Shown here one piece after another: positions 1-16,088 of a stretch of DNA of 64,000 bases. The notes beneath the pieces are model-generated. The model worked only from the letters and a program-made list of their open reading frames with translations. It made no database searches and had not been told where the DNA came from. The position numbers and the translations under genes are program-made. Source of the stretch: a virus; the IMG/VR virus record IMGVR_UViG_3300045988_063132, positions 38,776-102,775 of that record; one strand, written 5' to 3'. Position 1 is the first letter of the stretch, and each line of letters starts with the position of its first letter.

Positions 1-79
1 GTAGTTGGGATATTGTCGAAATAAGTTAAATGAATAAGACAAACACTTTCTTTTTATTCGCATCTTAAAACAATCAAAT

Positions 80-301
80 ATGAAAAGTAAAAAGAAATTA
101 TTTTTGTGGTTATATATACCACAAAATAGTAAAGTACAGTTTGATCCTTACAAGAGTTCTGTAACTCGAGTAGAAGTAGAATGTACTTTTAAAAAAGTGA
201 TACGTGATAAACATTCACCAATTGTAGAGTATACTTATACTCATCCACGACTTAATAAAAAGCTTACAGGTATAATACCTAAAGCTTTGTGGGAGGCATA
301 A
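80..301 (+). CDS. hypothetical small protein
   Basis: 73-aa ORF in the six-frame track. No recognisable motif. Confidence 0.3.
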   Translation: MKSKKKLFLWLYIPQNSKVQFDPYKSSVTRVEVECTFKKVIRDKHSPIVEYTYTHPRLNKKLTGIIPKALWEA

Positions 302-302
302 T

Positions 303-488
303 ATGTTAAGAGAGATTATAGAATATATAGTATTCTTCATATGGATCTTTGGCTTTGTTATGTCATATGCGTTTGGTGATATTCCTGCGATACTATATAT
401 CGTAATCTCTTTTATTATTATGGCTCGTATTCACATACGAGGCTTAAAGAAACTATTTTTATTAATAATTAAATCAATTAAAGAATAA
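303..488 (+). CDS. small hydrophobic (membrane) protein
   Basis: 61-aa ORF with a hydrophobic core (IVFFIWIFGFVMSYAF...ILYIVISFIIMA). It is packed tightly against the previous ORF. Confidence 0.3.
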   Translation: MLREIIEYIVFFIWIFGFVMSYAFGDIPAILYIVISFIIMARIHIRGLKKLFLLIIKSIKE

Positions 489-493
489 AAAGT

Positions 494-865
494 ATGAGTT
501 GGAGTGATGAACTTGAAGAACAAATTCTTTATCACTTTGGTAAAGATCCACCAAGTGAAGATAAAGATATAAAAAAGAAAGAAATCAAGAAAAAGATACG
601 AGAAGAATTAAGTAAAAATCCAACATTATCTAATATCCTAAAACAAAACAAGGCTGAAGGTAAATTCATAAAAGAATTTACTGATCAACTTATGGGATAT
701 AATTATAGTCCTAGAGATATAGGTATTAGAATTACTTATGCTATAAAACATAGTTGTTGTCCAATAGATAATGCGTTATGTTGGAGAAATACTAGTCAAG
801 GTCACAGTTATTGGAAAAAACTTAATTCAATTGTATCAGAAAATCTAAGGAAAACAAAATTTTAA
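494..865 (+). CDS. hypothetical protein
   Basis: 123-aa ORF with a basic K-rich segment. No recognisable catalytic motif. Confidence 0.35.
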   Translation: MSWSDELEEQILYHFGKDPPSEDKDIKKKEIKKKIREELSKNPTLSNILKQNKAEGKFIKEFTDQLMGYNYSPRDIGIRITYAIKHSCCPIDNALCWRNTSQGHSYWKKLNSIVSENLRKTKF

Positions 866-900
866 ACACTTATTTATTAACACTTTAAATTATCAAAATT

Positions 901-1299
901 ATGAGCGAAATTAAAGACGAAATTCGTAACGGTAGAATTATCAACAAAGAAGTAGTAACTGCAGCAGCTGAAGAACTGGCTAAGAAACGTAATGCGAAAC
1001 TGACGAAAGAAATGATGCGTATTGCCGTTGATTCTGAGTTCGAACGCAAGAATGCATTATTGAATTTGCAGCGCAATCGTGATGAAGAAGATCCGATCAA
1101 GGCTTGTTTGAAAGCTAAAGAAGCAAATGAAATTGCAGTAAAAGAAGGAAAGATGACACCGGAAGAATTTCGTGAAGCAAATCGTAAAGCCGATGATGAA
1201 AAAGCTAAAGCTTTACGTAGTATTTCTGATGAATACTACACTCTGCGTAACCAGTTGCAGAAGCAGTGTTATGACGTCCTGAATGATTGGGATGATTAA
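901..1299 (+). CDS. hypothetical charged/coiled-coil protein
   Basis: 132-aa ORF that is highly charged (K/E/R). It is preceded by ATTATCAAAATT, 4 nt upstream of the ATG. Confidence 0.45.
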   Translation: MSEIKDEIRNGRIINKEVVTAAAEELAKKRNAKLTKEMMRIAVDSEFERKNALLNLQRNRDEEDPIKACLKAKEANEIAVKEGKMTPEEFREANRKADDEKAKALRSISDEYYTLRNQLQKQCYDVLNDWDD

Positions 1300-1315
1300 T
1301 AACAACTCCGAACCT

Positions 1316-1632
1316 GTGCCGACAAGTACTGTAAAGCTTATCAATTAATATTAGTGTCTTTACATTTGTAGAGACACTAATACTAGTTAGTGCCGAAAGT
1401 TATTAAACCGAATGGATTTAGTAGGTAATTAAGTTGAATTGACAACTTCCCTCAAGTGCTATATGCCGTAGGGTGGAAAAACAACGTGCCACTGATCATG
1501 TGCCGAAGATCATTACTATTGTTTTAGCTATTGTACTTTATGTCCTGCATAAAAACAATAGGCTCTACTTGTAGAGTTTTATAGTAATGGTTATCAAAAC
1601 ACATATAGAAATTGTGCTTTATGCCGAAGTTT
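1316..1632 (+). repeat. five dispersed copies of an RTGCCGAAG-like motif in an ORF-free region
   Basis: The copies are gtgccgacaag (1316), gtgccgaaag (1390), atgccgtaggg (1464), gtgccgaagat (1499) and atgccgaagt (1621). No ORF of 60 aa or more lies between 1300 and 2100. Confidence 0.45.
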
Positions 1633-2205
1633 TATTTTTAATATATAGTATAAACGTTAAGTAAATCATATTTATATGATTTTTAAAATATTTATACGAA
1701 CTTCAATTTCTATCAGTCTATCAAAGGCACAGAATTCTAAGTAATATAATGCTTTATGCTTAAATGTTGTTTATAGAAGAGAAAAATATGTAATAATGGG
1801 TCCTCGATAAGGACGTCTTTAGACGGTAATAGAGTAGGAACAGATAGTACAGTCGCTCTATAAAGAATATTTAGTATTACTTAGGATAAACTCTTAAAAA
1901 TTCACAATTATGGATTGGACAAGAGAAGACTTAGAAAATAAGTCAAAAGAAGAACTTATAGACATCATTATGAACATTCAGGAAGATTTAGAGTATTTTC
2001 CAGATCTTTATGATAGTACATATGATGACTATGAGGAATAGAGAGTAAGGAGAGAAATCTCCTTACTTTCACGACCTTTTGGTTCATATTATTAAAATTA
2101 TTAAAAGTAGATATTCACAATATAAGAACTGTATTGTGTCTTATTAGGCTTATTAATCATTGTTAGGACGAGGGTTCGATTAAAATGGTCGAGTTTAAAT
2201 TGGGT

Positions 2206-2308
2206 GAATTCAGGGAACGCTAAACAAAAATGCTCAGAAATGACATTTTTGCATGCCAATCCTGAGCTAAGCATGTAGTACACTACATGAAAGTGCAGAG
2301 ACTACTGG
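2206..2308 (+). other. group-I-intron-like P, Q and R core elements (possible degenerate intron)
   Basis: A P-like element (gaattcagggaac) is at 2206-2218. A Q-like element (aatcctgagc) is at 2258-2267, with a possible cagg/cctg P4 pairing. An R-like element (gtgcagagactactgg) is at 2293-2308. No matching S element (GUAGUC) was found downstream. Confidence 0.3.
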
Positions 2309-2323
2309 AGAACTAAAGTGTTC

Positions 2324-2833
2324 TTAATTACCAGCTAGAGCGCCCAACCCTTCATTGGAAGGTGAAGAGATAGTCCAAGATTCACGAAACTTTTTAAGTT
2401 TCTCCTCAGAAATGAGGTTCCTATGAACCATTCTATGGCAATTAGGACATAAAGTTATTAAGTTTGTAATTTCATTTTTACCACCGTTAGATACAGGTAT
2501 AATATGATGAACATCACAAGAAGTTTTATTCCAACCGCATATTGCACAAGGTTGTAATAATAGAAAATTGTAAAACGATCTAGTAATAGTATTATTAGAT
2601 TTCATTCTTTTACGATAATCTTTTAATTTACAAGCATTTGTACAATACTTTGCTTTAGAAGATTGTGCTTCAAATTCCTGTTCACATACAATACATTTAC
2701 ATTTATATTTCTTTCTATGTAAATTTCTGTATTTAGCAGCACATGAAAGTGAACAAAATTTTGCATTTCCTCTGTTTACCTCTCGTAAATCAGCTTGGAA
2801 TTCATTATTACAATATAAACATTCTTTTTTCAT
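2324..2833 (-). CDS. HNH homing endonuclease with Cys-rich zinc-finger-like region
   Basis: The HNH motif HHIIPVSNGGKNEITNLITLCPNCH is present, with several CxxC pairs. The gene sits in a 1.9 kb otherwise non-coding stretch. Confidence 0.65.
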   Translation of the reverse strand: MKKECLYCNNEFQADLREVNRGNAKFCSLSCAAKYRNLHRKKYKCKCIVCEQEFEAQSSKAKYCTNACKLKDYRKRMKSNNTITRSFYNFLLLQPCAICGWNKTSCDVHHIIPVSNGGKNEITNLITLCPNCHRMVHRNLISEEKLKKFRESWTISSPSNEGLGALAGN

Positions 2834-3074
2834 ATAACTATAACGTATGTGGAGATAAAATGTTCTAATAACTTAAAAGAATCTGTCCCTCCAGCTCCAC
2901 GCTCACAAGAGCTACAAGGGAAAACAAAACTAGGATTTTTGATCGTGTTGACCGTGCGCCAAGTTTTTAAATTTTAGAACGGTCAAAAGGGGCTGCATGG
3001 ATTTGACTAGCAAATTAGAGAGATAAGATAGGTTCATTGTGTGTTTAAATGGCAACACTATGTTTGTCACTGAT

Positions 3075-3097
3075 TATTCTTGCGTAGCGTAAGAATA
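3075..3097 (+). other. perfect 10-bp hairpin (tattcttgcg-tag-cgtaagaata)
   Basis: The inverted repeat is readable directly, with one G-U pair. It contains the CGTAG/CGTAAG motif. Confidence 0.5.
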
Positions 3098-3126
3098 TGA
3101 TGCGTGCTAAATACGAAAGTTAGGGA

Positions 3127-3196
3127 TACTCTTTAGTTCAACAGGTTAGAATCGTAATTTTATTACAGAATGTGGGTTCGAGTCCCACAAGAGTAA
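3127..3196 (+). tRNA. tRNA-like element / probable degenerate tRNA (anticodon loop too short)
   Basis: The acceptor pairs tactctt with aagagta. U8 is present. The D-arm is gttc...gaat. The T-arm is gtggg-ttcgagt-cccac. The anticodon stem gtaat/attac leaves only a 3-nt loop. Total length is 70 nt. Confidence 0.3.
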
Positions 3197-3232
3197 CAAT
3201 TAACTTATGTTTAATTTCTTAAAAGTAATCAG

Positions 3233-3610
3233 ATGAAAAAGATGACTTTAAGCCAATTACATGGTAATCTAAAGACTTTCAGTAAAGAATTTATAGGAGC
3301 TGGAAGTAGAAATAGTGTAGTTGGATTGTATCGGAAACTTATTGAGTTAGGAGCAATTCCATCCAGTAAGGAAAAGGATAACAGTCTTATTAGCTCTAAG
3401 CAAAAGATTGTTATTCTATGTGTTAACGATGGAATTAGGAGTAAATTCGCTCGTATCTCATTGCATGAAAGATCATGGTGGGACTATTGGCATAACAAAG
3501 CACACAAGCATTGTAAGCCAGCTTATATTACTTATAATGTACCAAAACAAATGAGTACAGTAATAAGTAACTTAAATATTAAAGAATTAGAAACCCTAAT
3601 CCCAGAGTAA
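3233..3610 (+). CDS. hypothetical protein
   Basis: 125-aa ORF. No motif recognised. Confidence 0.4.
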   Translation: MKKMTLSQLHGNLKTFSKEFIGAGSRNSVVGLYRKLIELGAIPSSKEKDNSLISSKQKIVILCVNDGIRSKFARISLHERSWWDYWHNKAHKHCKPAYITYNVPKQMSTVISNLNIKELETLIPE

Positions 3611-3611
3611 T

Positions 3612-3806
3612 ATGGAACTATCTTATTGGATTTATTTTAAACCAGGTGAAAAAGATAAGCTTAAACAAATTATCGATGAAAATCCTAATCCTTTAATGGC
3701 AAATATTGCTATTCAAGAGGAGTTTGGTGTATCACTCACCGAAGCTGAGAAAATTATTGAGGTGTATAACAATAAAATTAATAAAACATGTCATCAAGAA
3801 TCATAA
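3612..3806 (+). CDS. hypothetical small protein
   Basis: 64-aa ORF tightly packed after the previous gene. Confidence 0.35.
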   Translation: MELSYWIYFKPGEKDKLKQIIDENPNPLMANIAIQEEFGVSLTEAEKIIEVYNNKINKTCHQES

Positions 3807-4222
3807 CGCTTAATAAACCAGGTTTATATGTTGCAGAACACAATTCTACTGGTAAGCAATTTTTAGTAAGTATAGGTGGTGAATTACCTATGTTGCGTGT
3901 AATTAATATAATCAATTTATCTGATTTTGTTAGTGGTTTTTATGCTGATAATAAAGATAAACAAAAATTACAAGATGACATGGAAGCACATCCTAATACA
4001 TACACTTATACTCCTATTCAAGTTAAATTAGAAAAAGAGTATGAAGAAGTAAAAGAGGATATTCTTGATTTATCTAAATATTCAACATTAGTTGAAAATA
4101 AGGATAAATTATTAGGAATGGATGATAATATGGCAGTTATTACTATATGTAAAGATGAAGGTCTTGATGTAGCTATTGCCACTGAGATTTGGAAACAATT
4201 CAAATTATCATTACGACCGTGA
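3788..4222 (+). CDS. hypothetical protein
   Basis: 144-aa ORF. The ATG at 3788 overlaps the end of the upstream ORF. Confidence 0.4.
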   Translation: MSSRIITLNKPGLYVAEHNSTGKQFLVSIGGELPMLRVINIINLSDFVSGFYADNKDKQKLQDDMEAHPNTYTYTPIQVKLEKEYEEVKEDILDLSKYSTLVENKDKLLGMDDNMAVITICKDEGLDVAIATEIWKQFKLSLRP

Positions 4223-4725
4223 ATGCAGATGAAGTAAAAAAGTATATTTACGATAAATCTGCAAAGCTATCACAGCAGTTTATTGACTTCATTAAAAATG
4301 AAGGAGTTCCTAATTATTTATTACCATCATTTGATAATAATAGTGGTTATAGATGTGATTGGAACATAATAGGTGGAGAAGAAGCAAAAGAATATTTTAA
4401 ACCTTATTATAAACCAATAAGTGATAAATTTATTCTTAGCTTAGAACAAAGAAAAAACGTACAAACTTGGTTATATAGAGTTAGTACTAAACTTTTTCTA
4501 CCTGAATTGATGGTAGGAAGTCCTATCACAACCGATAAAGTACAGCTACGAATAGCTACTTCTTTAATCGACAAATTAAACATTCCAAGACAATATCGAG
4601 ATTATCTATTTGATAACACTATATATTGTTTTTGGATTCGTAAACGAGCATATAGTAATTTCTTTTGGCAAGAAATAGTACAGCTTCCGTTTGCGCCAGA
4701 TTATCGTTTAAATATTAAGTATTAA
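4189..4725 (+). CDS. hypothetical protein (non-ATG start: TTG at 4189 or GTG at 4216)
   Basis: 178-aa ORF with no in-frame ATG near the 5' end. A hairpin (aagagaga-ttgggt-tctctctt, 4738-4760) follows it. Confidence 0.4.
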   Translation: METIQIIITTVNADEVKKYIYDKSAKLSQQFIDFIKNEGVPNYLLPSFDNNSGYRCDWNIIGGEEAKEYFKPYYKPISDKFILSLEQRKNVQTWLYRVSTKLFLPELMVGSPITTDKVQLRIATSLIDKLNIPRQYRDYLFDNTIYCFWIRKRAYSNFFWQEIVQLPFAPDYRLNIKY

Positions 4726-4780
4726 ATGATAATAGGGTAAGAGAGATTGGGTTCTCTCTTACTCACTAATCCGTAGGCCT

Positions 4781-5347
4781 ATGAAAGAAGAAGAAAAGAT
4801 TCTAATTGAAAAGGCGAAGCACGGTGATGAAAAGGCCTTTAAGCAATTATATGATAATTATTATCGTTTAATACGATATATTATCTATGATGCGATAAAA
4901 GATGAAGAAGCAACAGCTGATTTATTATCTGTTACTTTTACTAAGGCCTTCAAACGTCTCGATTATTTTGTTGAAACTATTTCTTTTGAAGCATGGTTAA
5001 AAACTATTGCAGTAAATACAGTCATTGACTATATTAGAAAGAATAAGAATCAACAAGATAATATCTCTATAGATAATGAGGATAATACAATTCAAATATC
5101 TAGTGATAATGATCCCGAAACTGATTTAATTAAATCAGAGTCAATAGATATTCTTAGAATTGCATTAACTCGACTTAGAGCCAAATATAGGAACCTTCTA
5201 GAACTCAGATATTTTGGTAATCTAAGTTATGAAGAGTTAAGTGCTGAGCTTGGTATACCGGTTGGAACTGTAAAGTCTGACTTAAACAAAGCTAAGCATA
5301 GACTCAAGTATTATTTTCAAAAAATTTCAAAAACTAACAAAACATGA
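4781..5347 (+). CDS. ECF-type sigma-70 family sigma factor
   Basis: The region-2 signature is FEAWLKTIAVNTVIDYIRKNK. The region-4 HTH is LSYEELSAELGIPVGTVKSDLNKAKHRLK. It is preceded by CCGTAGG 4 nt before the ATG. Confidence 0.75.
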   Translation: MKEEEKILIEKAKHGDEKAFKQLYDNYYRLIRYIIYDAIKDEEATADLLSVTFTKAFKRLDYFVETISFEAWLKTIAVNTVIDYIRKNKNQQDNISIDNEDNTIQISSDNDPETDLIKSESIDILRIALTRLRAKYRNLLELRYFGNLSYEELSAELGIPVGTVKSDLNKAKHRLKYYFQKISKTNKT

Positions 5348-5721
5348 CAACATTCATTGTATCTATGCTAGTAATTATCGGTATTGTTGCAATTGCACGA
5401 TATTACGGTAGTTCGTCAATGGCAAGCAATTTATTGCTTACTTTGGCATTTTCTGTTGTCGTGGGTCTTGGTATTCAATTTGCTACTAAGGGAAACCATA
5501 GTAAAAAAGAGAATGCTAAGATTGAAAATTCCATTGCAGTTAGTAATCCTGTATCCACACAGTCTGTTTGTACAGTGTTGGAACCTGTAAAAACTAGCCA
5601 TTCTGGGGCTGTGAGTCAGGTACAGGATTATAAAACTGTAGTAAAGGAGTTTCCACGATTAAATTCCAAAAAGCTTGCGTATACTGAACGTATAGCTCCC
5701 CCATTCCCAGATTCATCCTAG
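5344..5721 (+). CDS. membrane protein, start overlapping sigma-factor stop (candidate anti-sigma partner)
   Basis: There is an ATGA overlap with the upstream gene. Two N-terminal TM helices are present (FIVSMLVIIGIVAIA; LLLTLAFSVVVGLGI). The function is inferred from position only. Confidence 0.3.
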   Translation: MTTFIVSMLVIIGIVAIARYYGSSSMASNLLLTLAFSVVVGLGIQFATKGNHSKKENAKIENSIAVSNPVSTQSVCTVLEPVKTSHSGAVSQVQDYKTVVKEFPRLNSKKLAYTERIAPPFPDSS

Positions 5722-5807
5722 ATGAATATAACGGGATCACATTATTAGCTTTATAAAATAATTTATTAACTTTTAATATTCGAAAAGGCGAATTAAACAT
5801 TATCAAA

Positions 5808-7202
5808 ATGGGAAATAATAAGAACAAAGGTCAGAAGACTGACGATAAAACAAAGAAAACTACTGCCGCTCCTGCGGCTGCACCGGCTGCACAAACTAAG
5901 AAAGAACAGCCGAAGACGGGATTAAAGGAAGATAAAACTCCTAAACCCGCAGCTCCTACAGCTCCTAAGAAAGAGGAAAAGGAGACAAAAAAGCCTACTA
6001 CTGATGCTACTGGTACAGTAGAAAATGTAGCAGCAGAAGAAGTAAAGAAACCTGTAGCTTCTCCGTTAGAATCACCTAAAGTAGATTCCCTGATTTCACT
6101 TATGGGTCCTAATGATCTGATGGATGCGAATCATGCTGCAGAATTCTTATCGGCGCTTGAACGTCGTACTGCCCGGATGGATCGTAGTAAACCTATTACG
6201 ATTCAGATGGAATCCATGCTGGATTACAATATGATGTGGTATGCTGTACGTTTGTCTGTACAATCATTTGCACAGAAACGTGAATGTAATATGCTTACGC
6301 CGAATGATGAACTTATTGTTCAGCAAGCCATTGATACGGCTGCATCTATGGGTGTTGCTCTTGAAGCTCATCCTACAGATGATCCCAATCAGATGCGTCT
6401 TGAATTTAAGGATATTTCCCCTGAAACAAAAGCAGCAGCTGATGCAGAGAATGCCGCATCAGGTTTAGCTTCAACAGTTAAACCACCTAGACATGTAAAA
6501 CTTACCGAAGAACAGATGAATCCCCTGAATTGGAAGAATGATGATGAAGCGAAAGCTGCAATCACTCAAGATCTTCAAGAATCAGGAGAAACTCCATCTA
6601 ACAAATTCTTACGTATCTTGGGTAAAATCAAAACATATCGTGAGAATACTACAGAAGATCCCGTTCAGAAGGGAATCTGGAGTAGTGCTAACTTGGGAGC
6701 TCTTGCAAAAGAGTATTTCAACATTATCGGTAAGAAAGGTATTGTTGTGCTCTCTGGACTCATGTCTTCTACCACAACTTCGTTGAAGTTAGGTCAGACT
6801 ATGATCTTTGCACATTCTCTCTTACGGAAGAATATGAAAGGTCTGAATGATCAAGATGTAGTAGACTTGATTAAAGCGTTTATTGAAGTAATGCACGCAG
6901 ATCCTGCACAGCCTATCGAACAAGATCCTTGTGTAGTAAAGGGTATTTTGGCTCCAACTCGTGATACGTTTGTACGTATTGCGTTACAAAAGCCAGCAGA
7001 AGACGAACTAATGGATTGGTTCAAGAAGATTATGGGACCGTTCTATGATATCTATAAAGATGAAGTAGGTTCTAAATCTGATGAAGATTTTGCTCTGAAA
7101 GCAGCAAATAAGATGATCGAAATACGTAACATGTATGTCGATAAAGAAGCTGCATTCCCGCTCTTTACAAAAGAAGATTTCAAGGCTGTAATGGGTAAAT
7201 AA
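5808..7202 (+). CDS. hypothetical protein with Pro/Ala/Lys-rich low-complexity N-terminus
   Basis: 464-aa ORF. The N-terminal ~100 aa are APAAAPAAQTKKEQPK... repeats. The C-terminal domain has no recognisable motif. Confidence 0.5.
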   Translation: MGNNKNKGQKTDDKTKKTTAAPAAAPAAQTKKEQPKTGLKEDKTPKPAAPTAPKKEEKETKKPTTDATGTVENVAAEEVKKPVASPLESPKVDSLISLMGPNDLMDANHAAEFLSALERRTARMDRSKPITIQMESMLDYNMMWYAVRLSVQSFAQKRECNMLTPNDELIVQQAIDTAASMGVALEAHPTDDPNQMRLEFKDISPETKAAADAENAASGLASTVKPPRHVKLTEEQMNPLNWKNDDEAKAAITQDLQESGETPSNKFLRILGKIKTYRENTTEDPVQKGIWSSANLGALAKEYFNIIGKKGIVVLSGLMSSTTTSLKLGQTMIFAHSLLRKNMKGLNDQDVVDLIKAFIEVMHADPAQPIEQDPCVVKGILAPTRDTFVRIALQKPAEDELMDWFKKIMGPFYDIYKDEVGSKSDEDFALKAANKMIEIRNMYVDKEAAFPLFTKEDFKAVMGK

Positions 7203-7215
7203 CCTATTATATCAA

Positions 7216-7599
7216 ATGAAAGGTAAATTTGCTTATTTAGCAGTATTCGTTGTAGGTCTTATTATGTCCTACAATACTAACATTTTCAAACCCGAAAGTG
7301 TTACGGCAACAGAAACCATTAAAACGGTTCAGTTACCCCCAATTCCAGGTAATTTTAAACTTAACCTGGATTTAGAGACAGGTAAAAGTATCGTGGAAAG
7401 TAATATACCCGTTACAAGTACTGATATAACTGTCAATCACCCCACGAAAATCGTGGAAAAGGTAGTGTATAAAAAATCTAAACCCAAAGTAGTATATGAA
7501 ACAAAAACTGAGGTACAAACGAGACCGGTAATGTTCACTCTACCAACTCCCCGCTCTCACAAATTTGTACCTGAGTATCCTAAAAGTGTAGAGAAATGA
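7216..7599 (+). CDS. secreted/membrane-anchored protein
   Basis: 127-aa ORF with an N-terminal hydrophobic segment (FAYLAVFVVGLIMS). Confidence 0.45.
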   Translation: MKGKFAYLAVFVVGLIMSYNTNIFKPESVTATETIKTVQLPPIPGNFKLNLDLETGKSIVESNIPVTSTDITVNHPTKIVEKVVYKKSKPKVVYETKTEVQTRPVMFTLPTPRSHKFVPEYPKSVEK

Positions 7600-10044
7600 A
7601 GCAAAAAATAACTAAAACTAATATAGTATCATTAATTGGTATTATCTTATTCTATTTATTTTGTTTATTTTTTGCTTATTGTATTAGTGATTAACTATGT
7701 GCTTACCGTAGAATGGCACCGGGGAAAACGAGTCTCTCCCCCGTAGTAAGAAGCAGGGCATTATATATAGTGGTATTGTAGCTGTACACTCTAAAAGCAA
7801 TAAGACAGCATATATATATTAGGAATATCAAAGGCCAAGAGGATTCGTATATATAGATAAGTAATACAGGATATGAGAATATGATAACAGCTAACACTGT
7901 GATTCAAAAGGTAATATGATAGCTTACTATGGATTTATTACTTTATCCGTGAAGAATTAGTAAGAAAATGGGATAGCGTGCTAAACCCATAAAATCTCAG
8001 AGAACCGTCTGGCGGAGATTTAAAAAACGCGATCTAGGTCAGCAGACACGAAGACAAATTCAGCAAAGGTATCGGCATCCTAAAGTAAATATAGTTATGA
8101 GATGTATTTATGAGTGTATTGAAGTCTACACAAAGGAGAAACCTATGTCCGTGGGTACAATCATGTACGAAATCAAGAAGGGACTAAACACGAGTTGCCC
8201 CTTAGTTAAACATCCAAAAGTTTACTAAGTTTTGACTCCTGACTAACGTTCTTGGGTGTGTCCAAAGCATCCATTCTGAATCTATTATTGGAAGATATAG
8301 ATAAGATAAAAATGCTACTGTAGTGTTCTCTACAAGGTACCAAATGGTTTAAATTGGAACGTATGTTTAAATACATATAAAAGTAGATATGAAGGCAGAG
8401 AGATTAATCGAGGGTGCTATTAGGTGCTACGTGAAGAAGTAAAACGGTACAATTCCGTAATCTTTTACTCTTAGAAGTAAAGGATAATAGTCTGTATTAT
8501 TACTTTGAAACATATGGCTGAGAGGCTATGATCCATACAATGAACTTTAAATTCATTAGAATATAATAAGAATTCGAGACTTTTATTATATTTAAGTATG
8601 ACAGATTATCCGGATTAGGTGCCAAACCTATACTTAATAGAACGATTAATACAAATGTGTCAGTGTTTGCTTCAAGTTATGACACAATAATATATGGAAA
8701 GAAGCAGGTTGTAAAACGTGTCCTATAACACTACTACAGAATAACGACATCCTTTAGCAAGATGGTTACTTCGCAAGAAGTGAGAGGGATCTCAATAATT
8801 TACGTTATCGAAAAGTTAAATACGCCGGTAGAAACACCGTTACCTGAGAAGAAAGGTAGAAGTTCAATCAGATCTCAGTCGGCTTTCCGAGAGATAAAAA
8901 GCGAAAGTTGGGCTAATGTATAGTCAATGGGCTAAATTCAAGTCTGTTAATCCAGAGAAACGTAAATGTTATGATATTTACCTGAATCCAACGATTCATC
9001 ACTGGCCCGAGAGTTAACGTCACTCTTAAACAAAAGCGAGAATAACATGTTTAACCTAAGTAGTGGCTACGCCCACGAAATAATAAATCCAGGGGAGTCC
9101 CCGCTAGGGATAGTAGAATCTGCTGTTGTATAGTAGTATATGTTTCCTGACTGCGTCCTTGGCAAGCCAACCGTTATTGCTAAATAAAACTAATAGAGTG
9201 TATTGCGCAACAATATATGTTCATTAGAAAGCGTTTCATGAATCTTCATAGACTGGATACCTGTCGTGCGGAAAGAGTAGTGAAAAGTAGGTGGAAGTCC
9301 TCAATATTCGTGCTTGTAAAACAATCCTATGGACGGTTATATAATAATATATATTATTGTATGTAATTCCGTATAGGAAACTTAAAACCGTTGCTGCATT
9401 TGTAGGGCAGAACTAGTTAAGTAACGTTAGAAAACGACCGTATCTGTAACGGATTCGATAAAGTGGTAAGTATTAACTTCTGGGTAATTATAAGCTACAT
9501 GACAGGCCAATCTGCATGTGCAACTGTCTTGCAAACAGTTACTTTGTATTTGTGATTACTTGCTGAGATTAACCCCGAGACGCCGGGAAATACTAAGTTA
9601 ATATGATGAGCAATAGTTCCTTTCTCTTAAGCGTAAGAGAATTGTAAAATCTAAAGTAATGGTATTATAATATGTATATTAAATGTCTTAGATCTCATTA
9701 GTCTAAAGAAAAAGCTGTGCAGTATCAATAGTATGATAAGCTATTAATTTATTATATGTAGACACTCGTATAAGTAATATTAATTCTGGTATCCGAACTA
9801 CTCTGTAGAAGCAAGGAATGCAGAAAGGAAGAGGAAGTATCTACCTTGATTTCGATGTAAGTAAATCATTAATATGAAGATTATGCGTTTAAAACGAAAA
9901 TATTTATACTTTGTAAAGGATTGTACTTGAATGTACGTAGACGATTAGACACATCCTCTATATAATAAAATCTATACAAAGAGAGCAAAACTCGTTAATT
10001 TAAACTCATAAAATATGTAAATCAATTGTTTAACATCTCCGTAG
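7600..10044. other. 2.4 kb region with no ORF >=60 aa except one 64-aa antisense ORF
   Basis: Stop codons of all three kinds occur in all frames on both strands where sampled. The composition looks less AT-skewed than flanking genes. Several local hairpins are present. No T-arm motifs, direct repeat arrays or CRISPR-like periodicity were seen. Confidence 0.5.
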
Positions 10045-10620
10045 GTGGAATCAACCACGGAATCAAAAAAGGAATTTAAAATGGATAAATCAGTTATTTT
10101 GGCATCACAGTGTGGTGCATCATTAGGTAAATATATTCTCACTATAGAGAAGAACTCAGTAGATCCGAATTATTCACGGAAAGTACAGAATAATGAATTA
10201 CGGACTAGTCAGCAGATTAATCTGTATTCAATTAAACCTATTAAGGTTAAAATGGCTCAGGAAGTAGAAAGTGCTGAAGGCACTAAATTTGTAGAGTATA
10301 ACGGCGATTCGAAGTTACGGCTTCAGATTTCCGGTATTAACGACATTGCGGATATTATCCCGAAGCCCAACGCAGAAAGCGTAAAGAATGCGATTACTCG
10401 GTTCGAATCAACCGGTGAGATTACAATCTTTATTGATTATCCTCAGTTGACAAAAGAAATAGTTGCTCTGAATATGGAATCACGGGCTAAACTTACAGCG
10501 TTTGTCAACGAACAGATGCGGTTCATTAAAACATTTGAAACTGCAAACGAAACTGAAATTGCTGCTTGTAAGACGGCAATGGCCGCTGAAGGTATCGAAA
10601 TTAACAATTATTTCGGATAA
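10045..10620 (+). CDS. hypothetical protein (GTG at 10045 or ATG at 10081)
   Basis: 191-aa ORF. CCGTAGG lies immediately 5' of the GTG and is followed by a small gtgg/ccac hairpin. Confidence 0.45.
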   Translation: MESTTESKKEFKMDKSVILASQCGASLGKYILTIEKNSVDPNYSRKVQNNELRTSQQINLYSIKPIKVKMAQEVESAEGTKFVEYNGDSKLRLQISGINDIADIIPKPNAESVKNAITRFESTGEITIFIDYPQLTKEIVALNMESRAKLTAFVNEQMRFIKTFETANETEIAACKTAMAAEGIEINNYFG

Positions 10621-10628
10621 AGTAAACT

Positions 10629-11120
10629 ATGAGTACGCCTTTAACGAAAGAAGCGTTCCTAGACCTTCAGCATATGTTTGCTGATAAAGACTTTATATCT
10701 TTGCTATTTATGGATGAGAAAGAAATAGCTAGATATATTCATGTCGAAAAAGACGGTAGTGTAACGTTAGGCAGAACAAAATACAAATTTATCAATAGAC
10801 TCTTTAAAGATGAGAAAGTATTGAGTACTAATGATATTTGTTTACGGCTTATTAAAGTCATTACTGGAAAAGGAGGAACGCGAAACAATGAAGCTTTTGA
10901 TTGTCTTGTAAAAGATTTTACTAAAGCTTTAGATAAAGGAGATTACTCCTATGCTATTACTCGGATATTTATTGGTTATCGTCTAGGATATCTAAACGAT
11001 GTTGCAGCAATGCAAGCTTCTTCGGAAAAAGGTGAGGTAAGACTTCCGAATAAGCGAGTATTGGTACAAGATGGTTTCGGAGATTTCTATGCGATTAAAA
11101 TAGGTAAGTATCCTAGTTAA
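10629..11120 (+). CDS. hypothetical protein
   Basis: 163-aa ORF. No motif recognised. Confidence 0.45.
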   Translation: MSTPLTKEAFLDLQHMFADKDFISLLFMDEKEIARYIHVEKDGSVTLGRTKYKFINRLFKDEKVLSTNDICLRLIKVITGKGGTRNNEAFDCLVKDFTKALDKGDYSYAITRIFIGYRLGYLNDVAAMQASSEKGEVRLPNKRVLVQDGFGDFYAIKIGKYPS

Positions 11121-11221
11121 TTAAAGTTGACTATTCTAAAGTAATAAGAGTATTGAATGTATAATAGCAGATGTAACGCAAACAATATAGAAAATATAAT
11201 TATTACTTTTCAAGATATATC

Positions 11222-11262
11222 AAAGGACTTGCAGATGTAAGTCAAGTCCTTTCTCTTATATC
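11222..11262 (+). terminator. intrinsic terminator-like hairpin
   Basis: The 10-bp stem is aaaggacttg/caagtccttt with an 11-nt loop. T-rich ctcttatatcttat follows. Confidence 0.5.
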
Positions 11263-11422
11263 TTATAAGGCTATGATAATGTATCTGTAATGGATACTAA
11301 GTGAAGGAAAGCTTCAAGAATAAGACGAAGATGTCATATCGGGATGAACATAGCCACAAAGTACAGGTAGTTGATCATATTTGAGTATACTTTTATGTTT
11401 AATCAATTAAAATCAAAAGTAT

Positions 11423-11926
11423 ATGAAAAAAATTAAATCAACTGAAATTATTGAAAATCGTAAGAAGTATGACAAAGAGATCAAAAAGATGTGGAATATT
11501 ATTCGTACTGAAAATTTGATCGATAAAAACGCTACACGAAATTACGATATGAAAGCATTGTTGGATACAATTACAGAGATGTCCAATAATCGAATTCAGA
11601 CCAAGCTGGATTCAATTGCTATTAATCTAGGTTTTAAGAGTCGTAAAGACTTTCCTAAAGAAAGTATTTATCCTATTATTTATACTCTATCTGAAAAGAA
11701 TGAGTATTTAGTTCAGTTGGGATCTATTCCGACTATTAATCCTGGTTTAAAAGCTAAACTTGGTAAAAAGAAATTGTTTAAAACTGAAGAAATCACTGCA
11801 GATTATATTACTAAACTAAAGAATAAACTGCAGCTGGAAATCAATGCTCTGAAGAAGAAGCTTGAAGATTTCAACAGTAATGCTGAAATAGATATATCTA
11901 CTGCATATATGTATTTAGCAGCATAA
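11423..11926 (+). CDS. hypothetical protein
   Basis: 167-aa ORF. No motif recognised. Confidence 0.45.
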   Translation: MKKIKSTEIIENRKKYDKEIKKMWNIIRTENLIDKNATRNYDMKALLDTITEMSNNRIQTKLDSIAINLGFKSRKDFPKESIYPIIYTLSEKNEYLVQLGSIPTINPGLKAKLGKKKLFKTEEITADYITKLKNKLQLEINALKKKLEDFNSNAEIDISTAYMYLAA

Positions 11927-12029
11927 GGTAAACTGGTCTCCGTAAGTTATTTTTAAAGTTCAGCATCTCTATTTATAACTGTGAACTATTCTAATAGCAT
12001 AAAGTAACATTAAAATAACGAGTGGCAAG

Positions 12030-12054
12030 TGGGGTTCGAATCCCCGGAGACCAA
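12030..12054 (+). ncRNA. tRNA-like T-arm plus 3' acceptor strand fragment (tgggg-ttcgaat-ccccg-gagacca-a)
   Basis: The T-loop is canonical (TTCGAAT) with a 5-bp stem. The only complementary 5' acceptor strand (tggtctc) is about 96 nt upstream at 11934-11940. No canonical cloverleaf can be drawn. Confidence 0.3.
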
Positions 12055-12097
12055 CAAGTCTCGAAATATTAATATTAACATTTTAAAAAGTAAAGTC

Positions 12098-13441
12098 ATG
12101 AAAAAAGATATCAAATCTCAAACAATTGACAATTCTACCAAAAAATATCCGGTAGAAAGTAAAACATGGAAGTCTGATGTATGTCAGGCTTTGAAATTAG
12201 GTTATAAAGTAGAAGCTTTAAATGAAGAGCAAGCCGAATATATTAAGAAGATTGAAACTAAGCTTGCAGAAAAGGCTGCAAAAGCCAAAGTAAAAGAAGA
12301 GATGAAACAAACTCTTCTGAAAAAGATGTCAGATATAATGAAAGCTAAGAAAGCAGCAATTATATCTGCAGCCAATGATCTAGCTGATAGAATTATTCTT
12401 CGTGCCATTGAGAAAGAAGAGCAGAAGAAGAAATTCGATGAAACCGACAAGAAAATTAAGGAGAAAGTCAAGAAGGATAAAATGGCAATAGCTGAAAAGA
12501 AACGTAAACGTAAAGCAGAATTACGTAATAAAACTATTCCTAGTCCTGAAGCTATAGCTAATGCTAAGAAACAACAAGATTTTCTTGCAAAAGCTCATGC
12601 CGCTAAACGTGAAGAGATTGAAGCTCGTCTCGATGAGAAAGAAAATTTCATGAATCAATCTGCAGAAGAATGGAGTAAAAAACATGAAGAACGTATTAAA
12701 CGTAATACGGAACTTGCTCTCAAACGATTGCATCACAAAGAGATTAAGCTCAAACGTACTACAAAAGCTGAAAGAATTGAAGCAATTAAAGCTAAGAAAG
12801 AAGCTGGTAAAGCAGCTTTCAATGCTGAAATGAAACGTCAAGCTTCAGAAATTGCAGCAGACCGTCAAGGTTATGCTAATCGCGTAGAGAAACGTAGACG
12901 TACTGAAACAGAACGTCTTGCAATGATTGCAGAGCGTAGAAAACTACGTAAAGATAAGATTTTTACAGAACATCTTAAACAACAAAAGATTCAGCAATTG
13001 AATCTTAAACGTTTTATAGAGTCTGAAAAAGCTCGTCTAGCACGAAAAGAAGAAAAACGTGCCAAGTATCTTACTACGGGTGGAATAAAAGTTCCCAAAG
13101 TAAAGAACAATGTTGCTATAGATAAAACTAGAGCAGAAGAATATATTAAAGTTGCTGAAACAAAAATGAAAGATGAAAAAGAACGTTATATAATACGTAT
13201 TGCATCAATTGCTTCATCAGAAATTGTAAGTGATTCTGTTTGTGCATTCATTTGTAAACCAGAAGAACTTAATAAACGTATGAAAGAAGTTCATAACAAA
13301 CATATGAAAGAAGAACCCGATACATATGTAGGTATTTATGCTTACTCTGGCATCGGTAAAGATCAGAAATGTGTAAGTGAGATGCTAAACGATAAGTTTA
13401 AGGATCGTAGTAGACTTAATCCGAAAAATGAAGCAGCATAA
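12098..13441 (+). CDS. hyper-charged Lys/Glu/Arg-rich coiled-coil protein
   Basis: The ORF track starts at a GTG inside the T-arm element. The first ATG is at 12098 (MKKDIKSQ). About 60% of residues are K/E/R/A, in long predicted coiled coils. Confidence 0.5.
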   Translation: MKKDIKSQTIDNSTKKYPVESKTWKSDVCQALKLGYKVEALNEEQAEYIKKIETKLAEKAAKAKVKEEMKQTLLKKMSDIMKAKKAAIISAANDLADRIILRAIEKEEQKKKFDETDKKIKEKVKKDKMAIAEKKRKRKAELRNKTIPSPEAIANAKKQQDFLAKAHAAKREEIEARLDEKENFMNQSAEEWSKKHEERIKRNTELALKRLHHKEIKLKRTTKAERIEAIKAKKEAGKAAFNAEMKRQASEIAADRQGYANRVEKRRRTETERLAMIAERRKLRKDKIFTEHLKQQKIQQLNLKRFIESEKARLARKEEKRAKYLTTGGIKVPKVKNNVAIDKTRAEEYIKVAETKMKDEKERYIIRIASIASSEIVSDSVCAFICKPEELNKRMKEVHNKHMKEEPDTYVGIYAYSGIGKDQKCVSEMLNDKFKDRSRLNPKNEAA

Positions 13442-13475
13442 TATACAACAGGGGTGCGTCTGTAACGCACAATAT

Positions 13476-13547
13476 AGCGGGATGGCGCAAAGGTAGCGCG
13501 TAGCTTTCACGAGGCTGAGGTTGGTAGTTCGAATCTATCTCCCGCAA
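13476..13547 (+). tRNA. tRNA, anticodon CAC (Val by anticodon), no encoded CCA
   Basis: A full cloverleaf was drawn by hand. The acceptor pairs agcggga with tcccgca (A1-A72 mismatch). U8 is present. The D-stem is gcgc/gcgc with loop aaaggta. The anticodon stem is tagct/ggctg with loop ttCACga. The T-arm is ggtag-ttcgaat-ctatc. Confidence 0.6.
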
Positions 13548-13565
13548 CTAATTAACCGTAGTACT

Positions 13566-15476
13566 ATGAAAATTAAAGGAAAGACTTGCGTAGTCTTTGA
13601 TATTGAAGTTTTAAAGAACGTATTTACTTGTACTTGTAAGAATACTGAAACAAAACAGATTACAGTATTTGAAATATCTCCAAGAAGAGTAGATATACAA
13701 GGATTAGTTACATTCTTTTATGAAGATTATTATTTTGTAGGTTATAATAATATACATTATGATAATCCTATACTAAACTATATTATAATGCTATATAATA
13801 AACATTATTTTAATAGTTATAGTACTAGAGAATTAACTGAATCAATATTTAGAATGAGTCAATTAGTAATTGATAAAAATTCTGATTTTGATTTATGGAA
13901 AGAGTATAAATACGCTAGAAACTTCTTATCAATAGATCTATTAACAATGTTATATTCTAAAGCTTTACGAGTATCTTTAAAAGAGATGCAAGTAACAATG
14001 CAATATAAGAATGTAGAAGAATTCGTAGTAGATTGGCATCAAGATCTTCCTGAAAAGGATATAGATAGATTAATATCATATAATATAAATGATGTAGAAT
14101 CTACTGAAGAATTACTATATAGATGCGAAAGTGATCTAAATCTAAGAGTAGCTATTGAAGAAGAATATAAGATAAATTGTCTAAGTTTAGATGGTGTAAA
14201 TACTGGTATGAAGATTCTTGAACAAGAATATATTAAACATACTGGTATTTCTAAAGAAAAATTAGAACAATTAAGGAGTCCTTGTGATCAAATAGATCTA
14301 GAGAAAGTAATATTTCCCTGGATTGAATTTGATAGTCCTATATTACAGAATCTATTAAAAGAAATGAAACAACTACATAATGTATCACCAGGAAGAAAAG
14401 GATATGAAAATACCTTTATTTTTGGAGATATGAAAGTAACTGTAGGTGTTGGTGGTATTCATGGAGATCGTGGTATAGAAATTATTAAACCACGAGAAGA
14501 CGAATTATTATTAGATTCTGACGTTAGTTCTCTATATCCTAGTATGATTATAGAACATAATTTATATCCACCACATTTAGGTAAAGAATTCTTAGAGACT
14601 TACTCTAGTATTCGTACAAGAAGATTGAACGCTAAGAAGAATAAGAATAAAGTAGTAGATAAAACACTTAAATTATCATTAAATGGTTTAAGTGGTAACT
14701 TACAGAATGAACATTCTTGGTGTTATAGCCCATTTACTGTAATGCAAATTAGAATTAATGGACAATTACTACTTTTAAAGCTCTCTGAGAGACTTTTATC
14801 CATTGGATGTAAGTTACATCAGATTAATACTGATGGTGTCTTATATACGTGTAAAAAGACTAAATATGAAGAACTACAAAAGATATTAAAAGAATGGGAA
14901 GACTTAACTAAATTAAAATTAGAAACGGAAGAGTTTACTCAATTCTATCAATTAGCTATTAACGATTACTTTGGATTATCTCCAGAAGGACACATTAAAG
15001 AAAAAGGATATTTCCTTACAGAAATTACTTTAGGAAAAGGTTTATCTCCAAAGATAATTCCAGAAGCTATTATTAATTATTTTATACATAATATTCCAGT
15101 AGAAGATACTATTAAATTTTGTAAAGATATACGTAAATTCTTACAAGCTGAAAAGACAGGAAAACAATGGACAGTTGAATATAATGAACAAATTCAACAA
15201 AGAACCAATCGTTTTTACGTTAGTAATAGTGGATACTATTTATGGAAATGGAAATTAGATGATACTGGTAAGAAGTCTTATCAAATAATGTTAAAAGATC
15301 ATGGAGTAAGATTACATAATAAATTTTATTCTGATGAAGATCTTCAATGGAAATACTCTCAAGGAGAGACATTCCAAAGTATTTATGATATAGATTATCA
15401 GTATTATATTAATCAATGTATAAAAGTAATTGAAAAACTAAAACCAAAGCAGTTAAATCTGTTTAATTTTGACTAA
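13566..15476 (+). CDS. family B DNA polymerase (compact, ~636 aa)
   Basis: Exo I is FDIEV and Exo II is YNINDV. Motif A is DSDVSSLYPSMI, motif B is KLSLNGLSG and the motif C variant is INTDGVLY. The start is set at ATG 13566, because the track start at 13521 overlaps the tRNA. Confidence 0.8.
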   Translation: MKIKGKTCVVFDIEVLKNVFTCTCKNTETKQITVFEISPRRVDIQGLVTFFYEDYYFVGYNNIHYDNPILNYIIMLYNKHYFNSYSTRELTESIFRMSQLVIDKNSDFDLWKEYKYARNFLSIDLLTMLYSKALRVSLKEMQVTMQYKNVEEFVVDWHQDLPEKDIDRLISYNINDVESTEELLYRCESDLNLRVAIEEEYKINCLSLDGVNTGMKILEQEYIKHTGISKEKLEQLRSPCDQIDLEKVIFPWIEFDSPILQNLLKEMKQLHNVSPGRKGYENTFIFGDMKVTVGVGGIHGDRGIEIIKPREDELLLDSDVSSLYPSMIIEHNLYPPHLGKEFLETYSSIRTRRLNAKKNKNKVVDKTLKLSLNGLSGNLQNEHSWCYSPFTVMQIRINGQLLLLKLSERLLSIGCKLHQINTDGVLYTCKKTKYEELQKILKEWEDLTKLKLETEEFTQFYQLAINDYFGLSPEGHIKEKGYFLTEITLGKGLSPKIIPEAIINYFIHNIPVEDTIKFCKDIRKFLQAEKTGKQWTVEYNEQIQQRTNRFYVSNSGYYLWKWKLDDTGKKSYQIMLKDHGVRLHNKFYSDEDLQWKYSQGETFQSIYDIDYQYYINQCIKVIEKLKPKQLNLFNFD

Positions 15477-15527
15477 TATTAACAAAAACTATCATACTCT
15501 AGAACAGATGAATTAAATTAATTCATT

Positions 15528-16088
15528 ATGATACTAGAAATAGATACAAGTCTATTAAAAAAGATAGACAATCTTTCATTAAGTCAGCTAGTATTTTTAA
15601 ATCTTGTATTAGACAATAATCAAAAATCTATCAAAGAGGTCAAAGACATCGTTAGCCAGGTCAGCGACAATGATATACAAGATTTAATCAACAGAGGATT
15701 TCTTATTAGAGAAGAAAAAGCTAAAAAAGTTTCTTATAAAGAAACTGAACTATTAGTAAATATTATTACTGGTAATGCAGATTTATTTGAAGAATTTAAG
15801 AAGCATTATCCTATAGTAGTAATAAGACCTGATGGTACTAAAGGCTTTTTACAAGGTAATTCAAAGAAATGTAGAACTTTATATAATAAGATCATTAAAA
15901 ATGATATTATTTTACATAATCATATTATTCAATGTTTGGAGAAAGAAGTATCTGACAAACTTATGAGTGGTAAAATAGGTTATATGAAGACTATGTGGAA
16001 ATGGCTTACTAACTCTGAATGGGAAATTTATGAAGAACAAATTAATGAACCAATAAAAGATAATCTCTATGGAACAGAACTTATCTAG
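15528..16088 (+). CDS. hypothetical protein
   Basis: 186-aa ORF in the replication block. No motif recognised. Confidence 0.4.
   Translation: MILEIDTSLLKKIDNLSLSQLVFLNLVLDNNQKSIKEVKDIVSQVSDNDIQDLINRGFLIREEKAKKVSYKETELLVNIITGNADLFEEFKKHYPIVVIRPDGTKGFLQGNSKKCRTLYNKIIKNDIILHNHIIQCLEKEVSDKLMSGKIGYMKTMWKWLTNSEWEIYEEQINEPIKDNLYGTELI

Follow-up and report, generated by a model that had tools for sequence, protein, structure and literature searches.

A candidate gene for a very large structured noncoding RNA in crAss-like phages of the family Suoliviridae

Introduction

A 64,000-nucleotide (nt) stretch of the virus record IMGVR_UViG_3300045988_063132 (positions 38,776 to 102,775; this whole stretch is called the window, numbered from its first letter) raises the question of why a tightly packed phage genome holds about 2.4 kb without a protein-coding gene. 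An earlier reading of the letters alone (the sequence-only reading) had marked positions 7600-10044 and offered as candidates a large structured noncoding RNA, an intron without an open reading frame (ORF), a replication origin and a decayed gene block. In the comparative analysis described here, the interval 7695-10080 is very probably the gene for a very large, multi-domain structured noncoding RNA on the + strand and a hallmark of the Suoliviridae; the proposed RNA is about 2.3 kb in the window and 1.9-2.5 kb in relatives. The first of the four candidates is strongly supported by conservation and covariation, and the other three are not supported. Suoliviridae rank with the most common human-gut viruses, yet all deposited annotations examined leave this 2% of their genome empty. 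Full-text literature searches found the element undescribed, with most subscription journals outside their coverage, so that an earlier description is possible; terms for long noncoding regions do not occur in Yutin et al. 2021 (PMC7886860).

Coding capacity and limits of the interval

The 2445 nt first marked form the longest part of the window without an ORF of at least 100 amino acids (aa), the runner-up being 1024 nt, and ORFs of that size cover 88.6% of the 64 kb. The sole ORF of at least 60 aa in the window's ORF list for 7600-10044 is antisense, at 7703-7897; its 64 aa compare with a mean of 77 aa for shuffled copies, and the interval therefore has no coding look. In-frame stops number 57-66 per + frame and 47-61 per - frame, with all three stop codons in every frame, so that reassigning a single stop rescues no ORF, as the sequence-only reading had argued. 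Their frequency in the three + frames is 0.072-0.079, where base composition predicts 0.079; the neighbouring gene at 5808-7199 has 0 in-frame stops. The GC content of 0.34-0.35 is similar to that of the surrounding genes, which bears out the earlier impression of a sequence less A/T-monotonous than intergenic DNA. The tRNAs of the window are Lys(UUU) and Val(CAC), neither of which is a suppressor.

Small proteins were also considered. Twenty-five ORFs of at least 25 aa in the gap were tested, and none stays intact beyond close relatives except for scattered chance cases (in at most 2 of 13 lineages); many are already disrupted at 88-96% identity. The region 7695-10080 is noncoding. The first 95 nt of the earlier interval are different, as they encode a conserved 32-aa peptide whose unannotated ORF begins with an ATG overlapping the TGA stop of the upstream 127-aa gene (ATGA). 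The peptide is conserved in Boorivirinae; its frame and type recur in cr50_1, cr10_1 and the IMG/VR group B, and are missing from cr115_1 and cr4_1. At the other end, the most likely start codon of the downstream gene is ATG 10081, where the cr1_1 annotation puts it, rather than GTG 10045. Since the small ORF ends at 7694 and the downstream ATG lies at 10081, the noncoding stretch is 2386 nt, and the claim of missing coding capacity stands from 7695 onward. The features that set these limits are the following.

7596..7694, + strand: small ORF of 32 aa, a hydrophobic/membrane peptide (MKQKITKTNIVSLIGIILFYLFCLFFAYCISD), outside the RNA, which trims the earlier interval.
7695..10080, + strand: entire noncoding interval, the proposed giant structured RNA; ORF-free, a syntenic gap in relatives, its small ORFs unconserved.
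10081..10620, + strand: 179-aa gene, always adjoining the RNA, a candidate partner or target.

Synteny, distribution and selection

The interval is 99% identical to that of the uncultured crAss-like phages cr1_1 (MT774380, where window 7695-10080 corresponds to 42231-44616) and cr55_1 (Crassvirales; Suoliviridae; Boorivirinae), neither of which carries an annotation over the gap. The genes run in the order sigma factor, a small gene, a gene of ~465 aa, one of ~130 aa, the gap, genes of ~180 and ~170 aa, and DNA polymerase, all on one strand. Conservation in related phages was suggested as a check, and the same order with a coding sequence (CDS)-free gap of 1.9-2.5 kb is found at this site in every complete relative examined, across four subfamilies: Boorivirinae (cr50_1, cr10_1), Uncouvirinae (cr115_1, cr118_1), Loutivirinae (cr4_1) and Oafivirinae (cr130_1 and cr273_1, from macaque and pig). 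The flanking proteins of these relatives have diverged to 27-50% identity, and where both of them align, at 47-50% identity, the gap is 2458-2547 nt long. In a first, sigma-anchored set of IMG/VR contigs, 2.1-2.5 kb are ORF-free at 2.2-2.4 kb past the sigma gene in all loci with enough downstream sequence. A second IMG/VR set is less clean because the criterion used there, an ORF of at least 90 aa, divides the gap, which is split by such a chance ORF in many loci.

The gap is under purifying selection. Between genera, blastn aligns it at 65-77% identity over 7720-8014 and 8239/8383-9324; the sigma and DNA polymerase genes are detected about equally well, the adjacent 464-aa gene far less well. 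Across 21 lineages, islands of conservation (7880-7919, 7960-8040, 8160-8199, 8600-8639, 9160-9240 and 9280-9319) are separated by length-variable stretches, and near-invariant single-stranded strings stand in the same order in the four subfamilies: ACAGGAU, GAGAAUAUG, CAAAAGGUA, GAGAACCG..UGG, UAGUGUUC and CCAACCG. Hairpin loops of the form (G/U)CCAA(A/U) recur at 8260, 8621 and 9505.

A covariance model (CM) of the 5' core, R1, matches at E 1e-15 to 1e-25 in all Suoliviridae loci tested except cr118_1, and gives one match only in the window, at 7859-8024. The cr118_1 gap (L201, 11893-13812) lies at the same site with 1.9 kb, lacks the signature strings and the CM match, and resembles the 5' core only weakly by nhmmer, at 12152-12302 (E 6e-5); this version appears to be strongly diverged or partly replaced. 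Outside the family, neither a comparable gap nor an nhmmer match is found in crAss001 (Steigviridae).

A signature pattern scan of 185,579 bacterial and archaeal genomes gave 48 matches, ~40 of them chance and about eight true copies, the latter all on phage-like contigs of ~40-101 kb binned into metagenome-assembled genomes (MAGs), with zero in chromosomes. Suoliviridae-type contigs binned in MAGs (L245, L247, L238, L212, L229, L243, L236) carry the labels Segatella copri, Bacteroidaceae, Lachnospiraceae, Bacilli and Sphaerochaeta. The contig labelled Segatella copri is 101 kb long with a coverage of 210, and its label may hint at the host; the other labels resemble mis-binning. The Prevotella-labelled locus L247 is a pattern match only, unconfirmed by additional motifs. 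Seven further IMG/VR contigs, cr4_1-like and ~97-103 kb long (L149, L161, L162, L179, L183, L184, L186), end ~2.0 kb past the sigma gene, ~0.85 kb upstream of the RNA gene, at a common end that is either an assembly break point or the genome terminus.

Covariation and strand of the proposed RNA

Alignments were made with MAFFT and structures with RNAalifold on the + strand, the blocks being folded independently; 500 shuffles and slid pairings served as controls. In block A2 (7850-8340, 21 lineages) 97.8% of cells are paired, against 81.2% in shuffles (0/500) and 37-48% in slid pairings, and double-change cells number 98 where 29.9 are expected. Block A4 (9095-9340, 21 lineages) reaches 96.4%, against 77.7% (0/500) and 39-52%. 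In block A8 (9490-9715, nine lineages) the figures are 97.8%, 71.7% (0/500) and 21-45%, with both-side changes in 14 of 15 pairs. Compensatory base pairs, the generic criterion of a structured RNA, are significantly above the controls. The helices of the 5' core were confirmed by a wider set of 43-47 lineages at no more than 93% identity, collected from IMG/VR and GTDB contigs with a motif scan. Over the whole gap, RNAalifold places ~35 helices of at least 3 bp from 7782 to 9936, most with at least two compensatory pairs. Further hairpins, at 7724-7745 and in the 3' third, were read from the alignments themselves.

As for the strand, G-U and A-C cells stand at 137:15 in tool-verified helices, and the same pairs are 96.5% paired when read on the + strand and 85.7% when read on the - strand. 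All neighbouring genes are on the + strand, and this orientation together with the G-U/A-C asymmetry points to a + strand RNA.

Several observations weigh against the proposed RNA gene. Folding the + strand with RNAalifold itself biases the G-U/A-C count toward that strand. The minimum free energy of single sequences over 7860-8350 is no better than that of shuffles (z = -0.35 on +, -0.81 on -), and as folding energy gives no signal, all the structural evidence is comparative. No covariation-supported helix in the whole gap spans more than ~450 nt, and with helices this local one molecule of 2.3 kb is not told apart from adjacent RNAs. The candidate helix 7877-7882/8323-8328 that would close the 5' core is almost invariant, other alignments gave it other partners, and with barely any variation it is unproven. 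Pfam, PHROG and Foldseek searches of the flanking proteins identified no partner protein for the RNA. The ends, stability and transcription of the RNA are putative. Helices spanning more than 600 nt were rejected for little support, and a 14-nt inverted repeat (7930-7943/9078-9091) was not taken as real, as it sits in a local variable hairpin.

Structural parts of the element

The predicted parts, other than the two modules treated in the next section, are listed from 5' to 3'.

7724..7745, + strand: first hairpin, the 5'-most structured element in Boorivirinae (CGGGG...CCCCG / CGGGU...ACCCG / CAGGU...ACCUG).
7860..8330, + strand: 5' conserved core, with ACAGGAU, GAGAAUAUG (7875-7883), CAAAAGGUA, GAGAACCG and UAGUGUUC (8321-8328).
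7871..7917, + strand: helix 7871-7874/7914-7917 around hairpin 7888-7890/7897-7899; 41/41 sequences paired per position, with up to 4 pair types.
7968..7990, + strand: hairpin AUGGG...CCCAU, 100% paired (GC:11/AU:9, UA:11/GU:7).
7995..8018, + strand: signature hairpin, with a covarying 4-bp stem, an invariant GAGAACCG-NNN-UGG-N-G loop and inner CC:GG pairs.
8253..8273, + strand: hairpin with a conserved CCAAA loop; compensatory changes in 6/7 pairs (AU:10 GC:8 UA:2 CG:1, etc.).
8529..8630, + strand: central domain, with helices 8529-8538/8596-8608, then hairpin 8616-8620/8626-8630 with a GCCAA loop.
8671..8765, + strand: three covarying hairpins (8671-8706, 8717-8732, 8747-8765), the first and last with 5-6 compensatory pairs each.
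9091..9160, + strand: domain with nested helices 9107-9110/9145-9148 and 9120-9124/9132-9136.
9163..9316, + strand: 3' core domain, closed by CAAGC/GCUUG (9163-9167/9312-9316).
9498..9520, + strand: hairpin with a CCAAU loop in the 3' third; 7/7 pairs covary.
9574..9587, + strand: hairpin CCCG[AGACGC]CGGG; 4/4 pairs covary, 100% paired.
9690..9704, + strand: hairpin AGAU[CUCAUUA]GUCU, with an invariant U-G pair.
9923..9936, + strand: hairpin GUAC[UUGAAU]GUAC; loop conserved, stem fully covarying.

The signature hairpin illustrates the pattern most directly, its stem occurring in 47 sequences with UA, CG, AU, GU and GC variants (UCUC/GAGA, CCAU/AUGG, UUGU/ACAA, CCCU/AGGG and UCCC/GGGA among its versions) around an invariant GAGAACCG. 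The 3' core domain contains the CCAACCG string, a GCAA-tetraloop hairpin at 9198-9218 and a hairpin at 9289-9301, and its 8-bp hairpin has both-side changes in 7 pairs.

Paired AUCAA modules and the downstream gene

A 42-nt layout, with an outer helix and an inner hairpin whose loop is of the AUCAA type, followed by GRAAUCAANAAGG, occurs once within the element and once at its downstream end.

8145..8186, + strand: internal AUCAA module, with helix 8147-8150/8181-8184, hairpin 8155-8158/8165-8168, loop AAUCAU, then GAAAUCAAGAAGG.
10035..10076, + strand: terminal AUCAA module, a structured translation-initiation region of the 179-aa gene.

These are the only two copies within the 64-kb window, and an nhmmer profile of the internal module matches the terminal one (E 3e-5 in the window, E 0.003 in cr130_1); the internal and terminal modules are paralogues. 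Three subfamilies have the two copies together, and the terminal one occurs in four. In each copy the outer helix shows covariation (89.6% paired; UA:14/CG:7/AU:2, etc.), that of the terminal copy being UCC/GGA in the window and GUUUC/GAAAC, UCUC/GAGA or AUAUC/GAUAU in relatives. The 3' strand of the terminal outer helix is a purine run resembling a Shine-Dalgarno (SD) sequence, 3-8 nt before the ATG, and a covarying helix over such an SD-like region, the mark of a sequestered ribosome-binding site (RBS), is confined to the terminal ~45 nt.

As in mRNA leaders that sequester the RBS, SD-like purines here pair with upstream pyrimidines in a covarying manner; in contrast to such leaders, this pairing accounts for only about 2% of the element. 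The second, internal module could compete for the same ligand in the way that operator mimics do. Bacteroidota are thought to depend little on SD pairing, and the meaning of SD sequestration is therefore uncertain. No match to Pfam or PHROG was found for any of the seven flanking proteins, and AlphaFold2 models of the 179-aa protein (predicted local distance difference test, pLDDT, 77.6) and the 464-aa protein (pLDDT 68.7) gave no Foldseek match in the PDB better than E 0.4.

Searches for known RNAs and signals, and neighbouring loci

An Rfam scan had been proposed as a check, and Rfam 15 over 7400-10300 returned no family at E ≤ 10; two distant homologues gave chance hits only (E 3-10). At the gathering threshold, the whole window holds only a RAGATH-22 RNA and two tRNAs, all outside the gap. 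No repeat-spacer structure or model match indicated a CRISPR array, tRNA array, rRNA, tmRNA, RNase P or 6S RNA. The gap has no + strand intrinsic terminator, and its sigma-70 promoter-like sites are at background level. The Bacteroides -7 motif TAnnTTTG is absent from the gap and from the stretches up to 120 nt upstream of + strand gene starts in window positions 1-16000; its lack at gene starts suggests that the protein genes use phage-specific promoters. The motif is present at 3059, 68 nt upstream of tRNA-Lys.

Other noncoding loci were observed outside the element. The RAGATH-22 RNA (RF03098) lies at 1319-1498 on the + strand, with 125.6 bits against a gathering score of 120.3, and starts an ORF-poor stretch at 1300-2323. 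Two conserved noncoding blocks, 2040-2180 and 2984-3199 (which holds tRNA-Lys(UUU) at 3127-3197), are side by side in cr10_1, and this region (L003 465-884) carries a 'tmRNA' annotation in cr10_1 and in four further relatives. In the window the blocks are ~800 nt apart, with a - strand HNH endonuclease ORF at 2324-2833 (PF01844, E 2e-13), and 2040-3199 has the look of a tRNA/tmRNA-like locus into which a homing endonuclease was inserted. The pig phage cr273_1 (L200) has a second ~2-kb stretch without annotated CDS, at 1008-3004, upstream of the 'tmRNA'/tRNA region. In crAss001 (L371) the lone sizeable CDS-free gap, 905 nt at 43266-44170, is beside a TROVE (Ro60-like) gene, and a Y-RNA-like partner might be encoded there.

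Proposed mechanism and alternative explanations

With moderate confidence, the RNA is proposed to be made within a rightward transcript shared with the flanking genes; the interval has no + strand terminator-like site or host-type promoter motif. It would then fold domain by domain into a chain of compact domains and act as RNA, which is likewise held with moderate confidence. Far more tentatively, it may serve as a stable scaffold, machine or ribonucleoprotein (RNP), either by itself or together with proteins of the phage or host. The two AUCAA modules might conceivably bind one common factor, either the ribosome or a phage protein; in an equally speculative step, such binding could tie the build-up of the RNA to how the replication-proximal genes downstream are translated. 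The internal copy of the downstream initiation structure is in this sense a built-in functional clue. The strongest version of the proposal, which is possible and at present doubtful, would be a single RNA machine of ~2.3 kb (either a ribozyme or, as with GOLLD and ROOL but at three times their size, a scaffold or cage that assembles itself) that is essential for infection by the whole family, exerts AUCAA-linked translational control of the replication genes and represents the largest structured non-ribosomal, non-intron RNA class so far seen in bacteria or their viruses.

The alternative that survives best, though still rather unlikely, is a giant cis-acting leader or spacer of a polycistronic mRNA that controls translation or stability from the 179-aa gene onward. 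It fits the continuation of structure into the start of that gene with no terminator-like site between, the sequestering of the SD-like stretch by the covarying last 42 nt in all subfamilies, and the missing host-type promoter motif. Riboswitches, T-boxes and ribosomal protein leaders are under about 0.5 kb, and 2 kb of covarying, multi-domain structure is an order of magnitude above known bacterial leaders; the evident link to the start codon is moreover limited to the very end of the element. The leader is partly compatible with a structured RNA gene, because processing could free the RNA.

A tandem array of independent small or medium structured RNAs, 100-450 nt each, is unlikely. The local span of all covariation-supported helices, the little support for those beyond 600 nt, and the alternation of conserved islands with length-variable stretches are what such an array would show; large RNAs such as rRNA are also composed of locally closed domains. 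Block order, spacing and total length are kept across four subfamilies, internal promoter-like and terminator-like signals are at background, and no block resembles a known small RNA family in Rfam, all of which favours one RNA gene over an array.

That the helices form in single-stranded DNA, as part of a replication origin, packaging site or set of hairpin promoters for a phage RNA polymerase, is very improbable. Compensatory changes alone cannot separate RNA from single-stranded DNA hairpins, the element is just upstream of the replication gene block (DNA polymerase at 13566), and N4-like phages employ DNA hairpin promoters. An origin does not usually consist of 2 kb of unique conserved sequence. 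Repeats in the gap are only short two-copy chance repeats, with no iterons or direct-repeat clusters, and tandem arrays are absent from the noncoding interval; the four weak rows of the Tandem Repeats Finder fall in the small ORF, in 26 nt at 8095-8120 and in the terminal module. The skew measurement suggested for an origin signature shows no local anomaly in the gap; GC is gene-like, and both GC and AT skew change sign at ~25 kb, outside the gap, where gene orientation turns from + to -. Finally, pairing is strand-asymmetric, G-U being tolerated 9x more than A-C and several G-U pairs being fixed, which fits an RNA of one strand rather than duplex-symmetric DNA. The suggestion of a replication origin is not supported.

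Still more improbable is a self-splicing intron without an ORF, whether of group I, of group II or of a new class, or some other mobile RNA element. The size is within the group II range, an HNH endonuclease insertion lies 5 kb upstream, and introns are known in crAss-like phages, as described by Yutin et al. 2021 (PMC7886860). Rfam intron models (group I, domain V/VI, D1-D4) have no match at E ≤ 10 in the window or two distant homologues, no ORF for a reverse transcriptase or homing endonuclease lies within it, and the flanks are two different complete genes rather than halves of one. The element also occupies the same site in every family member, unlike patchy mobile introns.

A decayed gene block or genes in an alternative code can practically be dismissed: stop-codon recoding does occur in some crAss-like phages, according to that paper (PMC7886860), whereas here all stops occur in every frame at the composition-expected frequency, the tRNAs include no suppressor, no ORF of at least 25 aa is kept beyond near-identical relatives, substitutions show paired-site compensation and not a codon-like pattern, and sequence, length and position are conserved across the subfamilies under purifying selection.

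Comparison with known large RNAs

Once confirmed, the proposed RNA gene would raise the size record of phage ornate RNAs about threefold and add a family without detectable relation to GOLLD, ROOL or OLE. With its fixed context and hundreds of natural variants, it would offer a tractable way to test the purpose of giant phage RNAs, and the element is a target for cryo-electron microscopy and gut metatranscriptomes as well as a specific marker for Suoliviridae.

Group II introns, now known from phages (PMC12350094), are similar to the element in overall length and multi-domain architecture. The element differs in lacking a domain V/VI or D1-D4 match and an intron-encoded protein, and in being fixed and outside genes. 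The large bacterial RNAs OLE, raiA, HEARO/omega RNA, RNase P, tmRNA and 6S share with it a conserved multi-helix build with invariant loops, and act as RNPs or scaffolds. None of their Rfam models matches the element, which is larger than any of them, confined to one phage family and without a recognisable associated protein gene.

The closest parallels are GOLLD and ROOL, ornate RNAs of phages and prophages with undetermined function that form RNA-only nanocages (PMC12286853). GOLLD, a good number of whose members are longer than 800 nucleotides (PMC12286853), is like the element a large, elaborate phage or prophage noncoding RNA recognised by covariation only and without a known protein partner. 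The element, at ~2.3 kb, is about three times longer, has no Rfam model match (at the gathering threshold, or at E ≤ 10 in the gap and two homologues) and is carried by gut phages of Bacteroidota. GOLLD is often near tRNA islands; no such island adjoins the element, the nearest tRNAs being single ones at 3127-3197, 4.5 kb upstream, and at 13476-13548, 3.4 kb downstream. ROOL (Rumen-Originating, Ornate, Large), which was highly abundant where tested (PMC12286853), is likewise a phage- or prophage-borne ornate RNA without an assigned function; the element is several times longer, has another genomic neighbourhood and finds no Rfam match. Judged from these comparisons, the element appears to resemble GOLLD and ROOL only loosely, as a large conserved phage RNA.

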